This document shows, piece by piece, positions 39,001-48,000 of a DNA stretch of 64,000 nucleotides. Where the stretch lies: assembly GCA_030695645.1 (NCBI GenBank), contig JAUYQG010000162.1:7092-71091 (forward strand), given 5' to 3'. Position numbers: made by a program. Within the stretch, counting starts at the first letter, position 1. Each line of letters opens with the position of its first letter. The stretch comes from Legionellaceae bacterium. GTDB lineage: Bacteria > Pseudomonadota > Gammaproteobacteria > Legionellales > Legionellaceae.

Positions 39001-42000
39001 AGTAATAGGAATCAGTATGGAATAAATGCGGAGATTTCGAGCATCTTGACCAACTGCTTGTTCATAATCCACAGCCTCTTTTCTTAAACCACCAGTCATC
39101 CCGGGAACCAAAATAACTCGCAAATACTTCAACCCGAGCTCTTCTCTTTTTGCATTAGCAATACACAAAGCCCACGCAAAGTCATATGTAATGGGCTCCA
39201 CTTCAAAATCATAAAAAAAATATAAACTTTCTTTACTGTTAATAGTACTCTTTTTAAGAGAACTAAAAAAATTAACTGGTCTAATAAACAAGTGATGAAT
39301 AACCAACGCGAAAGGTTTAATAACGTTTCGTGGAATTATCGTGGGCGTTATAAATTCGCGAACTATTCGTCGCATAAACCACCTCAAACCCTGCTCTTTA
39401 AATTTTCTTAACAAATACATTACTTAATCCTACTGGACTTTGGACAAAAAGACATGAAAATGGCCTCATGTCTTTCTGTCCAAGAAATTTGAGATCTGTC
39501 ATTCTAAATTAGATTACTAATCATCCTGAATGTATGTTTTTTTACAAGGAAAGCCGGTTGTGTCAAGTATTGTAAGCTTATAAATATCACCGATCTAAAA
39601 TTATTTGGACAGAACTGCATGCGTCTTTTTGCATGCAGTTCTGTCCAAAGTCCAATTTACAAATAATCACCATATAAATCCTCTACAATGGATTCAAGTG
39701 ACATATCTGGCAACTGAAACAGCTTGCTTGACTCACTCATATCAAGACTTGAATAAGAACATAATGGAGAAGCAACACCTGCTTGTAATGCGGACTTAGG
39801 ATGAACCAACGATTCACTCACTCCTAACAGGCGCACTAAACACAAAGCCATCGTATGATAAGTAATATCATGTTCTCCGGAGAGATGAATGGTTTGTTTT
39901 ATATTTCTTGCCACAATTTCCTTTAGACACGAAGTGACTGTTTTGATAGAAATTGGACTGAAACGAAGATCATAAAAAGGTTCAATACGGCTATTGTTTT
40001 TTAATGCCTGTATCCATTGTAAAATGAGCGGGTAATCCGGTGTTAATACCTTTGTTAATCGCACTATTGCAACATTATTAGACATGCTAAGAAGCTTACT
40101 CTCTGTGGCTGCCTTGTGTTCGCCATGAGCGGTTGTTGGGCAAACATTGTCTTCTACTCGATAAGCCGGCTTATTTCCATCAAAAACAGTTTGACTGGAT
40201 AAAAAAATAATAAATGCATTTTGCCTGAAAAAAAAGTTCGCCAAATTAATTTGTGCTTCATAATTCACTATTCGTGAATATTCAAGAGAGTTTTTACAGT
40301 CAGAAAACTTAGTAATGCTGGCGCATAAAAAAACCGCGTCCATGGGAATATCGCAACAAAACTCCCCAACCAGAGCTAAATCTAAATAAAAAATTCGTTT
40401 ACTTATGTTTTCCTTTTTTCGCGTAGTCCCAAATACAGAGTAACCAAAATGCTCCAGCTCTGCTTTTAAAGCAGAACCTATTTGAGAGTCAATTCCAATA
40501 ATCAATATATTTTGATTTTGTGTCAAATAAAAAGTCATTCACAATCCCAGTTTAATGAGCTTACTTACGCTTGGAGTTTGGACAAAGCAACATGCAAAAA
40601 CACGCATGTTGCTTGTTCAAATAATTGAGATCCCGATTTAATAGGCGGTTTGAGTATAACCATGCATCATCGCAAACCCCCTATTAAATACATTAATCTT
40701 TCTCAGTGCCCATCATGGACAGAAGGACATGAGTCTTTTTTCATGTTCTTTTGTCCAATGTCCAATTAGTTAAGATACGAAAAAATATCACAAAATAAAT
40801 TTATAAACAAATTATGAAAAACAGGTTGCAACCAAGCTTTACATTGCATTACTATCACTGGAATCATAACACTAGTTTTTCATGAAATGATTCCGGGTGC
40901 GTTCGAAATAACCTCCTATTTCCGTACGAAACTATACTGCGCGCGGTCACAAACTTAAGTTTGTGACCGCGCGCAGTATAATTACGTTTTACATATTCAT
41001 AAGCAGACATATATGTTTCTTGAGCTACCACCAGAGCAGGAATTGACTTAATGAATCCAATTTATTTCGGTGTTTGCGTCTGGAGTCGCGCTTATTGTGA
41101 GTTGTTTGTCAATTACGCTCTAGCTTCATTACTAGCAGATGAAAACATTCCGGCACTTGATAATTCATCAAAAAAGAATTGTTTTTTATTATCAACTACA
41201 AAAGAAGATTGGCAATGGTTCCAATCTCAGCCTCTGTTCAAACTATTACAGTGCCATATGGATGTTGAGCTCCTAGAAATTACTCTCATCTCAGAAGAAG
41301 AATATCAAAAATTAAACAACCGACTCGGGCTGAGCAAACTATACACAATGACATTGGGGCATCGCCAAATTCTTAATAAAATGCATGCTGATAAAGCTGT
41401 AGGAAGCATTGTTTTCCCTGATTCAATTTATTCAAAAAATGCCATTTCTTCCGCTTATAAACATATTGCGAATGGGAAAACGTCCGTTTTAGTACATTGC
41501 CCCCGATTTTCAACAACATCTATCGTTGATGAATTACGAGATATGCAATACGTTAAGCCAGGAGTCCCTCTAACAATAGAGCCCCGCACGCTAGTACAAG
41601 TTGCTATACAGCATCTTCATATCGATATGCGAATGCAACAATGGGAGGCGCCTTATGCACCTGAATTTTTCATGGACCCATCATGGGTTTTACCGAATAA
41701 CTCCGGTATGTTGTTTTATACATGGAGTTGCTGGTACGCATTTATTGATTACGCCAAAATGCCATCACATAATATCAATTCCTTACAGGATAATACGATA
41801 GATGGTGCATATTTCGATAATAATCTTAAGAAAAATGAAGCGCATTTTATTACGGATTCCGATGAATTTACTTTAATTACATTTAGTCCTCATATGTATC
41901 GAACGATCCGTCAGCACTCCATCAGCAATCACTTCGATCAAAAAGCAATTAATTTAACCAAAATTGACTTTGCAAGAAGGAAAATAAAAGAAACTATGGG

Positions 42001-45000: not shown

Positions 45001-48000
45001 AAAGAGAAAAATAATTAATAACATACATCTACTTTTTAGCAAATTATTGAGTTTATCTTATCGTGTGTTGAGGCGACTAAAACGCAGTATTGTTGGTATT
45101 CGAAATATTGGAATTCGAAGGGTTGTAGATTTTGGGATTCGAAGGACTCGAAACATCCTAAAGATACTATTTATGGGGCCTAAATACATATTTAAAGGAG
45201 CGAAACACGCCGTCCATAGTACTTATCAGATTGTATCTAATAATAGACACTTATTCATAGGCATGACTCTATTTGCAACTGGAGCGGTGCTCGGCGTGAC
45301 GTTAACTCTACTGGTTTTATTGCTGCGAATCTTGAAGGTCTAATGGGCTTCTTAAGATTTGGAGTCTGGACAAAACCGCATGAAAAAAGACTCATGCGGT
45401 TTTATCCAAATAACGGGCAATTAATGAACGGTATAAAAAATTAAGTGATGTCTTCAAGATAATAGTTAAGCGCTTCTTTGAAGGCCAATGGTTTAAAAGC
45501 ATAATTATCTATAGCGTATTGGCTTGAAATTACAAAAGATGTTTTTTGATTATCTTCTATACTAATTACTGAGCTCGAATTGAATTTCTTAATAATTTTT
45601 TCTACTATGTTGATAATGGGTAACCCATCTTTAGAGGCAACATTAATACAATCAAAATCATGATGTAATTTTGTATGCAATAACGTCTCAACAAAAACAG
45701 CTAATTCGTTAACATAGATCGCATTGTTAAAAAGAGCATCTGGATTATTTAAGGTAATCGTTTCACCTGCTTTCGCTTTATGAATAGTACTAGCTAACCA
45801 ATGTCTAGCCGCACCATTCCCCATGACGGCTGGTAACCGTATCGTTATCGATTGAAACCATTTTTGCTCACGTAACATTGCCTCACACATTAGCTTACTT
45901 GTGCCGTAGACATGGGGTTTATAAATTGGGGTGCTTTCATTCAATATTGGTTGATTCACTTCCCCATATACAGAGCAAGTAGAGAAAAATATAAATTTCT
46001 GGATACTAAGGTTCTTCACTAAGTTGATTAAATTTTGAGTTGCTAATATATTGTCTTGTATAAGTGGATATGTTGTACTCACGGGAGGAGCCGTAGCGGC
46101 AATATGTACTACGACATCAAAACTACCTTCTATTTGTTTAATGCTAGATAGGTCACCATAAATACACTGAACATTATTTCCAAAATTTTGTGATGCTTTG
46201 TTGCGACTAATAACGGTGACATCGTGACCCTTGTTTATAAACTGCCTCAATATAAATTTGCCGCAAAAACTATTAGGTCCGGTCAATAAAATTTTCATAT
46301 GCACTCATCTACTAGAATTGTCAACAGACCCTAATTATTGGACTTTGGACAAAAAGACATGAAAAGAGGCTCTTGTCTTTTTGTCCAAGAAATTTCAGAT
46401 CTATCCTTCATAATTAGATCGTTAATTATCCTGATTGTAAATGTTTTTACAAAGCAAGCCGATTGTCGTTGATATTTTGGCCTATAAATAAGTCAGATCT
46501 AAACTTATTTGGACAGAATTGCATGCGTCTTTTTGCATGCAGTTTTGTCCAAACTCCAATAATTAGTAACTACTCATTTCGTATCAAGGAAATTAATATA
46601 TACTGCGCGCGCAGTATAGCCATTAAGATACCACTTCTGCAGTCTTTGTCTCGACTGTATCCTTATAACGAGCGGTTAAGTAAAACTCACGCACTTTATC
46701 TATGGTGTAATTAATTTCTTCTTCAGTAAGATAAGGATGTGCCGGGAAAGTAATTACTTGTTGTCCATGAGCCTCTGCAACTGGGAAGTCACCTTTTTTA
46801 TATCCTAAGTACTTTGCAGCCGGTTGCATATGCATAGCTATAGGATAATGAATTTTTACCTCTATCCCTGCTTTAGATAAGAAATTAAAAAGTTGATCTC
46901 TGTGTTTAACACGAATCACATAGATATGAAAAACATGATTTACGTCTTTTCTACGGACAGGAACATCAATAAAATCGTTCAGATCAGCAAAAGCTGCATC
47001 ATAACGATGTGCAATCGCAATACGTTTTTTAGTAATTTCCTCTAACTGATTTATTAATCGGTTTGCAATAACCGCCTGAAGAGTATCCATACGGCAATTA
47101 ATACCATACTCCACACAAACATCACGATTTAGCATCCCATGATTCCGATAACGGCGTAGTTTTTCTGCATGCACATCTGAGTGAGTGATAATAACACCCG
47201 CATCAGACCAAACATTTAAATTTTTGAGTGGATGTAAACTAAACGCTGCAAAATCACTCCAGCTCCCGACGGATTGAGTACCAATTCGCCCCATTATAGT
47301 TTGACAAGCATCTTCCACAATGGATAGATTGTGCCTTTTTGCAATTTTAGCAATGCTCGGCATATCAGCAACATTACCCGTATAGTGAACCGGCATAATG
47401 GCTTTGGTTTTAGACGTAATGGCAGCTTCAATTTTTTCAGGATCGATAACGTATCCATTTTCACTATCTACAAAAACGGGAGTCGCTCCAACTTGTACAA
47501 TAGAGCCAACAGTAGCGACAAAAGTATTTGCACAAGTAATCACTTCGTCACCAGGCCCAATCTGTAGCATTTTTAGAGACATGGCCAGGGCATCAGTACC
47601 AGTACCAACACCAATAGCATGAGGTGCATTATGTAACTTAGCAAATCGATCTTCGAATTTTTTTAACTCAGCGCCCAGAGTAAAATCTGTGGTTTTGACA
47701 AAATTACGAATATCCTCAAGATAGGGATCTATATCAGCAAATTGACGTTCTAAATAAGAATAAGGGACACGCATTGAAAACACTCCTTTAATAATAAAAC
47801 TTCTTAACATGTTCAACTATATATTCTTTCTCATCATCTCCCAACTCTGGGTAAATGGGCAAAGAAAGAACCTGACTCGAAATTCGTTCAACATTCGGCA
47901 AGCTACCTGGTACATATTTTAAGTGAGTTCTTGCTATAGGTTGTTGATGAATAGGCACTTTATAATGAATTTTTGTTTCAATTCCTTGTGAAGACAAATA

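Follow-up and report, generated by a model that had tools for sequence, protein, structure and literature searches.

Predicted GT-A-fold proteins as candidate glycosyltransferases in a Legionellaceae glycan locus

Introduction

Which enzymes join the sugars in a polysaccharide locus in which no glycosyltransferase (GT) can be recognized? This question is raised by a locus in a Legionellaceae metagenome-assembled genome (MAG; GenBank assembly GCA_030695645.1), of which we analyzed 64,000 nucleotides of contig JAUYQG010000162.1 (positions 7,092 to 71,091 of the forward strand). This whole stretch is referred to below as the window, and all coordinates are positions within it. Between 36.6 and 63.3 kb lies a locus of minus-strand genes that also contains four members of an uncharacterized gene family, here called P1, P2, P3, and P4; none of the 20 other genes of the locus has a GT domain in Pfam. 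The position of P1–P4 therefore fits a transferase role, as a preliminary description of this DNA had assumed when it proposed glycosyltransferases or glycan-modifying enzymes of an ABC-transporter pathway. On the basis of structure prediction, family searches, and gene neighborhoods, we propose that the common core of P1–P4 (~385 amino acids, aa) is probably a divergent GT-A-fold, nucleotide-sugar-dependent glycosyltransferase.

Results

Four Paralogs and Their Gene Models

The arrangement described earlier, three consecutive plus-strand genes and a fourth on the minus strand, was borne out by our listing of open reading frames (ORFs). P1 (41051..42406, plus strand) codes for 451 aa and P3 (43832..45343, plus strand) for 503 aa. 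The start of P2 (42423..43835, plus strand; 470 aa) was set to the ATG at 42423, replacing the TTG at 42375; this ATG is preceded by an AAGGAG/AAGGA ribosome-binding site (RBS), leaves a gap of 16 nt from the P1 stop, and yields the N-terminus MSKPIY, which agrees with the homolog P0015. Because of this RBS and spacing, and because the P2 stop and the P3 ATG overlap as ATGA, P1–P3 are predicted to form a translationally coupled operon. P4 (53635..54810, minus strand) has 391 aa, the length of the deposited annotation Q8R24_08910; the deposited proteins Q8R24_08860, Q8R24_08870, and Q8R24_08910 are identical to P1, P3, and P4, respectively. According to the ORF listing and Pfam, no plus-strand genes other than P1–P3 are credible in the interval 36.6–63.3 kb, as had been claimed, since the other plus-strand ORFs there (50292-50609 and 52204-52578) overlap minus-strand genes with Pfam matches. 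A promoter scan remained at background level (22 matches vs. 25.5 expected).

A hidden Markov model (HMM) of the family, run against the six-frame translation of the window, found exactly P1–P4, with E-values from 3e-131 (P1) through 3e-117 (P2) to 4e-107 (P4). In the core, identity is 63% for P1/P3, 44% for P1/P2, 42% for P2/P3, and 20–22% between P1–P3 and P4 (P1/P4, 21% over ~357 columns), and BLASTP aligned P1 with P4 across 276 residues at an E-value of 2e-23. Judged from these sequence comparisons, the paralogy of P1–P4 is far beyond chance, and the distant fourth copy reported at 53635-54810 is upheld. In a neighbor-joining tree, P1 and P3 are sisters within a P1-type clade, and P2 does not group with them but forms an older branch together with P0015, to which it is 60% identical. 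P4 and its orthologs (54% identity to P0036) make up another, deeply separated clade. The three adjacent genes are thus paralogs, but the tree contradicts a simple recent triplication and points to a P1/P3 duplication next to an older P2 lineage. The motifs listed in the preliminary description likewise recur in the paralogs, with exceptions in P2, which has KPIYLG in place of NPIY and FCRFA in place of CPRFS.

Predicted Fold of P1 and Invariant Residues

The AlphaFold2 (AF2) model of P1 has a mean predicted local distance difference test (pLDDT) of 87.1 and a predicted template modeling score (pTM) of 0.80. Its N-terminal part comprises β1 (residues 4–9), a helix (13–27), β2 (44–49), β3 (71–76), a helix (95–113), and β4 (117–120), and the order β1-α1-β2-α-β3-α-β4 is that of GT-A enzymes. 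All of the 50 matches listed by Foldseek against the PDB were GT-A glycosyltransferases or related nucleotidyltransferases, among them AvpGT, GlcAT-P, COLGALT1, GfsA, SpsA, glycogenin, GnT-I, MGS, and K4CP; Foldseek probabilities ranged from 0.47 to 1.0 among the matches listed and were ~1.0 for the top ones. WrtF, another Foldseek match, was considered as a relative and rejected, since it is a GT2 enzyme. In the BFVD library, one match was a true homolog, from an uncultured Caudovirales phage (E-value 8e-24, TMt 0.83), and the remaining named matches were almost all of the GT2, GT6, GT8, GT17, or Fringe type. Because of the element order and of the structural neighbors in these two libraries, the fold class of P1 is predicted to be GT-A-like, with a core of approximately aa 1–385 followed by a C-terminal transmembrane (TM) helix. 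The comparison with GT folds suggested in the preliminary description thus returned informative matches of the GT-A type, albeit weak ones.

Six residues (P1 numbering), W11, N32, D124, R152, D269, and D271, are invariant in 56/56 diverse members and are retained in each of P1, P2, P3, and P4. Near-invariant in the same set are G12, P34, H104, P123, R179, H190, W212, Y234, H240, D251, Y254, N258, and S270 (the last in 54/56 members). D124 (codon 41420..41422, plus strand) forms a P-D motif directly after the predicted strand β4, at the position of the GT-A DxD motif. The D269-S270-D271 triplet, within TDSDE (codons 41855..41863, plus strand), is located ~145 residues further downstream.

Annotation Status and Distribution of the Family

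No family of Pfam-A or NCBIfam, which served as a proxy for the CAZy families, matched P1, P2, or P4 at E ≤ 1, and P3 matched DUF5716_C alone (E-value 0.11, well below the cut-off of that model). Diverse relatives had no Pfam-A or NCBIfam match outside their fused domains. Searches of PDB sequences with phmmer and with a 56-sequence profile (hmmsearch) returned chance matches only (best E-values 0.33–0.44). The sequence family of P1–P4 is therefore absent from Pfam-A and NCBIfam and appears to be uncharacterized; this agrees with the earlier remark that no known GT signature was recognizable, and the profile searches assigned the family to no characterized GT family.

When 1.84 billion representatives were searched exhaustively with the HMM, 3105 clusters (50% identity) passed E ≤ 1e-3, of which 1861 also passed E ≤ 1e-10 and 349 passed E ≤ 1e-30. 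The family is thus neither small nor local; its apparent size of 14–24 proteins, confined to a close Legionellaceae clade in word-indexed searches, was an artefact of sensitivity. A genome scan, which used an 18-sequence subset alignment and sampled only members carrying LL[AS]P[GN]NIPAL, found carriers among Nitrospirales, MAGs of Alpha-, Beta-, and Gammaproteobacteria, a Coxiellaceae MAG, a Legionellaceae MAG, and one cultured strain, Labrys okinawensis DSM 18385, whose member lies at approximately 2,484,538-2,485,653 of NZ_CP178864.1. A consensus-like member gave no tblastn match in PLSDB plasmids or INPHARED phages, and a scan of viral contigs produced pattern matches, none of which was confirmed; the phage-encoded homolog in BFVD is A0A6J5PWU5. 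In the literature on GTs of ABC-dependent O-antigen synthesis, on Coxiella virenose and dihydrohydroxystreptose (DHHS), and on Legionella O-antigen clusters, we found no paper on this family.

Membrane Anchor and C-Terminal Tails

A hydropathy scan (KD19) confirmed that P1 and P3 each end in a single TM helix. In P1, it spans aa 427–445 (42329..42385, plus strand; ILLIGFFFGATLTLFIVLL; KD19 2.7) and falls in the long helix 403–447 of the AF2 model; in P3, it spans aa 480–498 (45269-45325, plus strand; KD19 2.45). Basic residues precede the helix in both proteins. No TM helix was detected by the same scan in P2 or P4, and a strongly hydrophobic 19-mer occurs in 28/155 members, so that tail anchoring, taken earlier as a property of the family, is not a family trait. 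P1–P4 have no signal peptide. The C-terminus of P4 is a basic, aromatic-rich tail that has no TM segment and possibly folds as an amphipathic helix, and P2 ends in an acidic tail with a KFYPVFCHNIENE motif.

A conserved C-terminal tail motif, (K/R)x(Y/F)xP(I/V)Px(S)(Y/F)(L/I)(E/K)N(N/S), was also noticed in P0004, P0008, and P0011 (e.g., YFPIPKSYLENN); the P2 C-terminus (43770-43835) carries the related KFYPVFCHNIENE ahead of its acidic tail. A partner protein may dock at this motif.

Gene Content of the Locus and the Unannotated Protein U380

Pfam assigns the enzymes of the locus to epimerases/dehydratases, two DegT aminotransferases, the E1 alpha and beta subunits, two methyltransferases, and a GFO/IDH oxidoreductase; further genes code for a UDP-Glc/GDP-Man dehydrogenase-like protein, an HldE-like protein with reversed domains, an ABC-2 permease with its ATPase, and an unannotated protein, U380. 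All of the following features are on the minus strand. The Wzm-like ABC-2 permease (37398-38303) and the 252-aa ABC ATPase, which has no Wzt C-terminal domain (36630-37388), are encoded alongside biosynthesis genes here and in four relatives. Neither Wzy nor Wzx was found in the cassette with Pfam, and neither a coiled-coil molecular ruler nor a Wzt carbohydrate-binding domain was seen in it.

Upstream of P4, a conserved part of the cassette (55713..63311; Pfam, synteny) contains a methyltransferase, an epimerase, the UDP-Glc/GDP-Man dehydrogenase-like gene, the GFO/IDH oxidoreductase, the HldE-like gene, and two epimerases. In the HldE-like protein (59570-61216), the nucleotidyltransferase domain (aa 42–141) precedes the PfkB kinase domain (aa 207–501). 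Immediately upstream of P4 is a 225-aa S-adenosylmethionine (SAM) methyltransferase (54810..55487), and this pairing of a methyltransferase with a P4-type gene is conserved in relatives. Genes for E1-beta, E1-alpha (thiamine diphosphate (ThDP)-dependent), and a 330-aa epimerase/dehydratase occupy 50460..53592, in synteny with relatives, and four extra sugar-nucleotide genes, an epimerase/reductase, two DegT aminotransferases, and a GMD-like dehydratase, follow at 45441..50203. The GTG start listed for the GMD-like gene (49088-50203) is probably too far upstream; its first ~47 residues have no Pfam match, and a palindromic hairpin at 50117-50160 (see below) lies inside that stretch.

U380 (38281..39420) has no Pfam match, but its AF2 model (pLDDT 89.6) matched the GT9 structure 3tov (E-value 4.7e-6), as well as TagF and WsaF, in Foldseek, and the protein is predicted to be GT-B-like (GT9/TagF-like). 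All of its 105 homologs, including those of Coxiella lineages, are named hypothetical. All three unannotated kinds of cassette protein (P1-type, P4-type, and U380) are thus predicted to have GT folds.

Cassettes of Relatives and Neighborhoods Across Phyla

A co-directional cassette is common to four Legionellaceae relatives (loci L047, L048/L049, L052, and L053). In L048, L052, and L053, the order of the 15 genes is HldE-like gene, GFO/IDH oxidoreductase, dehydrogenase, epimerase, two methyltransferases, P4-type gene, epimerase, E1 alpha, E1 beta, one P1-type gene, U380, ABC-2 permease, ABC ATPase, and RmlD-like gene, so that U380 has the P1-type gene on one side and the ABC-2 exporter on the other in these three relatives, though not in the fourth. 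In L047, the same genes are rearranged: the two methyltransferases are separated by a U380-like gene of 387 aa, the ABC-2 permease, and the ATPase, and the P1-type gene stands before E1 alpha and the RmlD-like gene after E1 beta. P4 orthologs hold the same position in all four. The window differs from these relatives in having three P1-type genes, on the opposite strand, and the four extra sugar genes at 45441..50203, which are absent from L047, L048, L052, and L053.

Beyond Legionellaceae, we surveyed 125 neighbors at 23 loci of Nitrospirota and Alpha-, Beta-, and Gammaproteobacteria. The commonest Pfam families were epimerases/dehydratases (16), RmlD (15), methyltransferases (14), radical SAM/SPASM (7), ABC-2 permease (6), ABC ATPase (5), SIS (5), and DegT (4), and GDP-Man dehydratase was also among them. 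Relatives of P1–P4 therefore sit in glycan loci with ABC-2 exporters across phyla, and nothing in these searches showed the family to be unrelated to glycan synthesis, the outcome that the preliminary description had named as a refutation. A general link of the family to E1/transketolase-type branched-sugar genes was considered and dropped, since these genes are not among the top neighbor families across the 23 loci; they occur near family members in the Legionellales cassette and in Labrys.

Several members are fused to, or overlap, other domains. In locus L043 (7968-10781), the family domain is followed by a canonical GT2 domain (PF00535) in one 937-aa protein, and in locus L027 (7977-10795), a family gene and a GT2 gene are adjacent and overlapping, with genes for a methyltransferase and an APH-type kinase coming next. 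The family domain is fused to an MptE/Maf-like domain in P0155 and to SPRY domains in P0018 and P0098, and two complete family domains stand in tandem in 13 sequences, which amount to 12 distinct representatives, as two belong to one cluster.

Repeats at the Edges of the Inverted Block

A repetitive extragenic palindromic (REP)-like element with the half-site TTGGACARAANNRCATG is abundant in the window (37 half-sites vs. 1.05 expected). It forms intergenic hairpins of ~44–55 nt, whose inner stem varies between copies yet stays self-complementary and which fold at -23 to -30 kcal/mol (z -6.5 to -8.4). Hairpins mark the left (40715..40758) and right (45366..45409; -23.1 kcal/mol, z -7.2) edges of the P1–P3 block, and the copies at these two edges are 78% complementary over 50 nt. 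Other copies are located at 20466-21025, 24295-24338, 26112-26155, 31424-31467, 33937-33980, 34100-34143, 36417-36460, 36582-36598, 39440-39483, 39605-39648, 40578-40610, 46345-46388, 46509-46552, 50117-50160, and 50282-50325. Where the gene modules depart from the cassette of the relatives, their junctions coincide with copies of the element, and such copies also bound the extra sugar-gene block. This suggests that the REP-like elements have a role in, or record, rearrangement of the locus. In addition, the AT-rich intergenic region before P1 contains a perfect GC-rich palindrome of 23+23 nt (40934..40979; ATACTGCGCGCGGTCACAAACTT|AAGTTTGTGACCGCGCGCAGTAT; -43.1 kcal/mol, z -11.7), ~70 nt upstream of the gene start. 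It might act as an operator, terminate transcription in both directions, or block antisense read-through.

Other Glycan Loci and ORFs in the Window

A second, separate glycan locus at 669-20499 has its own Wzm/Wzt pair, the Wzt with a weak Wzt_C domain, along with two GT2 enzymes, a GT10-like fucosyltransferase, an FkbM methyltransferase, a C-methyltransferase, a ThDP enzyme of YerE-like architecture, two radical SAM/SPASM proteins, NUDIX and HAD proteins, a DegT aminotransferase, a nucleotidyltransferase, and a NusG/RfaH-like gene (17893-18396). A further set of polysaccharide export genes, the third in the window (21156-27847), comprises Wza (21156-21986), Wzc (22058-24274), and a low-molecular-weight phosphotyrosine phosphatase (24355-24804), and adjoins a UDP-GlcNAc 2-epimerase and a bifunctional ATP sulfurylase/adenosine 5'-phosphosulfate (APS) kinase (26138-27847); the latter gene beside the Wza/Wzc set hints at a sulfated polymer. 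Genes for a sulfotransferase and for an ATP sulfurylase/APS kinase likewise accompany the cassette in locus L051 of a Coxiella sp. MAG. Two plus-strand ORFs have no Pfam match, 29462-31366 (634 aa) and 34020-35405 (461 aa); the second lies between a Rieske protein and a gene of the LPG_synthase_TM family, and this neighborhood recurs next to the L053 cassette.

Discussion

The predicted GT-A fold, the glycan-locus neighbors, and the GT2 fusion favor the glycosyltransferase role in an ABC-transporter pathway that had been put forward for P1–P4, whereas the polymerizing role put forward with it is speculative. We infer the catalytic activity, donors, acceptor, and topology of the four proteins as follows. 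P1–P4 would act on the cytoplasmic face of the inner membrane and complete the polymer before its export, for which the evidence is indirect: they have no signal peptide, the anchor of P1 and P3 has its basic residues on the N-terminal side, and the cassette yielded no Wzy or Wzx. P1 and P3 would be held there by their TM helices, while P2 and P4 may attach through possibly amphipathic C-terminal tails or through partner proteins. Each enzyme would add one unusual sugar of the locus to an undecaprenyl-diphosphate-linked O-polysaccharide, and the adjacent ABC-2 (Wzm/Wzt-type) transporter would export the finished glycan. If the D...D...D layout of GT2-type enzymes is taken as a guide, the nucleotide may be bound by the β1-'WG' loop, N32-I-P, and D53, with D124 after β4 taking the DxD position; D269-S-D271, R152, and H190 would complete the active site, D269/D271 and R152 being possibly involved in catalysis or in diphosphate binding.

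Several observations weigh against this proposal. The Foldseek matches in the PDB are weak (best E-value 2.8e-4, TM-scores of 0.2–0.36) and typically cover ~160 aligned, N-terminal residues, while no solved structure was matched by the C-terminal ~200 core residues. The hhalign comparison of the family profile with a GT2 protein from the window gave a probability of 0.1. A canonical DxD is absent as such: D124 is followed by S, T, or L, and no acidic residue stands at +2; P1–P3 also lack the Asp that the family consensus PDxxxSDG has at +5. The fold itself is shared with nucleotidyltransferases, RmlA/RffH and ADP-glucose pyrophosphorylases appearing low among the Foldseek matches (E-values 3e-3 to 7e-3), and GT-A-fold proteins can be non-catalytic partners, such as STM0725 (PMC11294581). 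Protein names, cluster look-ups, and the literature yielded no member with an experimental function or an informative name. Finally, the contig is of MAG origin, and misassembly might, in principle, account for the inverted orientation of the REP-flanked block.

Four other explanations were considered, each less likely than the glycosyltransferase reading. P1–P4 could be GT-A-fold transferases that add a non-sugar or phospho-linked group (glycosyl-phosphate, phosphoglycerol, or another nucleoside diphosphate-activated substituent) or a chain cap, and that would thus modify the glycan without forming glycosidic bonds. This would suit the constant pairing of the P4-type gene with a methyltransferase, the atypical DxD motif, and the family member of L027 beside a methyltransferase and an APH-type kinase, which are components of WbdD-like chain terminators. 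We nevertheless regard it as unlikely, because it would leave U380 as the single candidate glycosyltransferase for the whole polymer, the informative structural neighbors are almost all sugar transferases, and the dual-domain and GT2-fused architectures resemble multi-module glycan polymerases.

Rather less probable still is that one or more of the paralogs (e.g., P2 or P4) are dead GT-A-like scaffolds that stabilize or regulate a partner transferase. STM0725, from the Salmonella T1 antigen, offers a precedent, being the GT-A-fold, non-catalytic partner of the ribofuranosyltransferase STM0726 in an ABC-dependent glycan system (PMC11294581), and P2 and P4 lack a TM anchor, P2 also deviating at the CPRFS motif. 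All four paralogs nevertheless keep the six invariant residues, including D124, R152, D269, and D271, and P4-type proteins are a conserved orthologous clade, as the identity of P4 to P0036 illustrates. Like STM0725, P1–P4 are proteins of predicted GT-A fold in an ABC-transporter-dependent glycan locus, whose role cannot be read from the fold alone; unlike the STM0725 clade, which lacks a candidate catalytic base (PMC11294581), they keep every family-invariant acidic residue.

It is very unlikely that P1–P4 make donors, as sugar-1-phosphate nucleotidyltransferases or other enzymes of nucleotide-sugar metabolism. The pyrophosphorylases among the Foldseek matches would agree with this, but glycosyltransferases outrank them and dominate both Foldseek lists, the cassette already has an HldE-like kinase/nucleotidyltransferase, and TM anchors, tandem domains, and a GT2 fusion are not pyrophosphorylase features. 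RmlA-type sugar-1-phosphate nucleotidyltransferases have a G-x-G-[TS]-R loop after β1; the consensus at this place in the family is W-G-x-x-[YF]-R, without such a loop.

An assembly artefact in a genome that truly has a single-copy, co-directional cassette is the most improbable explanation, despite the MAG origin and the repeated palindromic elements bounding the block, since identities of 44–63% imply that P1–P3 are not collapsed or expanded copies of one gene, the edge REP copies are too short and too divergent to mislead an assembler, and a P2 ortholog (P0015) exists elsewhere.

If P1–P4 are glycosyltransferases, they would be of an already known kind, namely GT-A enzymes in ABC-transporter-dependent O-antigen synthesis. 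They share the predicted N-terminal Rossmann-like strand order with the GT-A Leloir enzymes SpsA (GT2, 1qg8), glycogenin (GT8), GlcAT-P (GT43, 1v82), GnT-I (GT13, 1fo8), and AvpGT (9jn3), as well as an invariant Asp after β4 at the DxD site, invariant acidic residues downstream, and, presumably, a cytoplasmic location. They differ in having P-D-x rather than D-x-D, in the signature W-G...N-I-P...R...D-S-D, and in the lack of any sequence relationship detectable with Pfam, NCBIfam, the PDB profile search, or hhalign. Multi-module O-antigen GTs, such as WbdA, WbbM (GT111), WbbB (GT99-102-103), and Klebsiella pneumoniae O4 ORF7 (GT137) (PMC11231755), are likewise encoded beside Wzm/Wzt-type exporters, with several modules per locus, in separate genes or fused in one polypeptide. 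However, none of these families matches that of P1–P4 via Pfam or NCBIfam models, and neither the coiled-coil ruler nor the Wzt carbohydrate-binding domain was seen in the cassette of the window. The ABC-transporter O-antigen pathway has repeatedly yielded new GT families with new mechanisms (GT99, GT111, GT137; PMC11231755).

The comparison with the relatives, made at the level of sequence and gene order, indicates that the ancestral cassette had one P4-type, one P1-type, and one GT-B-like enzyme (U380), and that the window represents a derived state. The single P1-type gene would have become a coupled operon of three genes, in which P1 and P3 arose by local duplication and P2 represents an older lineage; this operon would have been inverted, bounded by REP-like elements, and placed beside the four extra sugar-nucleotide genes. 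The added transferases may have been recruited to install additional sugars or linkages in the repeating unit.

The cassette resembles the O-antigen region of Coxiella burnetii (PMC5843353, PMC13552124, PMC13252051), where cbu0664-cbu0704 have been assigned to virenose synthesis (PMC13552124) and where CBU0678, an HldE paralog with reversed domains, is essential for phase I lipopolysaccharide (PMC5843353). The cassette starts with epimerases and an HldE-like gene, whose product has an N-terminal nucleotidyltransferase and a C-terminal kinase in the window as in CBU0678, and it includes methyltransferases, E1 alpha/beta, and an ABC-2 exporter. In the corresponding region, a Coxiella endosymbiont of Ornithodoros amblus encodes a family member (WP_280123402.1, 458 aa, E-value 4e-27, named 'hypothetical protein') together with a U380 homolog, two aminotransferases, and E1 alpha/beta near an ABC-2 pair, and a Coxiella sp. 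MAG has two members. No C. burnetii protein surfaced in the family searches, none of which was aimed at this species, and we do not claim that the family occurs there.

We tentatively suggest, as a possibility of somewhat less than even weight, that P1–P4 represent an undescribed GT family at the CAZy level with a divergent GT-A core (W-G/N-I-P/P-D/R/D-S-D; >3000 clusters in Proteobacteria and Nitrospirota). It would supply the 'missing' transferases for rare, branched, or methylated sugars of O-antigens made by the ABC-transporter-dependent route in Legionellales, including the Coxiella lineage, and its recurrent tandem duplication, of genes as well as of fused domains, would be a sign of bifunctional polymerase modules.

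In conclusion, if the members of this family are active glycosyltransferases, thousands of sequences now labeled 'hypothetical protein' would gain a function, and O-antigen loci of Legionellaceae and Coxiellaceae that are apparently without transferases would become interpretable. The conserved cassette, with its reversed HldE-like protein, E1 alpha/beta, methyltransferases, two GT-A-like proteins, one GT-B-like protein, and Wzm/Wzt exporter, would be a compact, reconstitutable system in which to study the synthesis and polymerization of unusual branched or methylated sugars.

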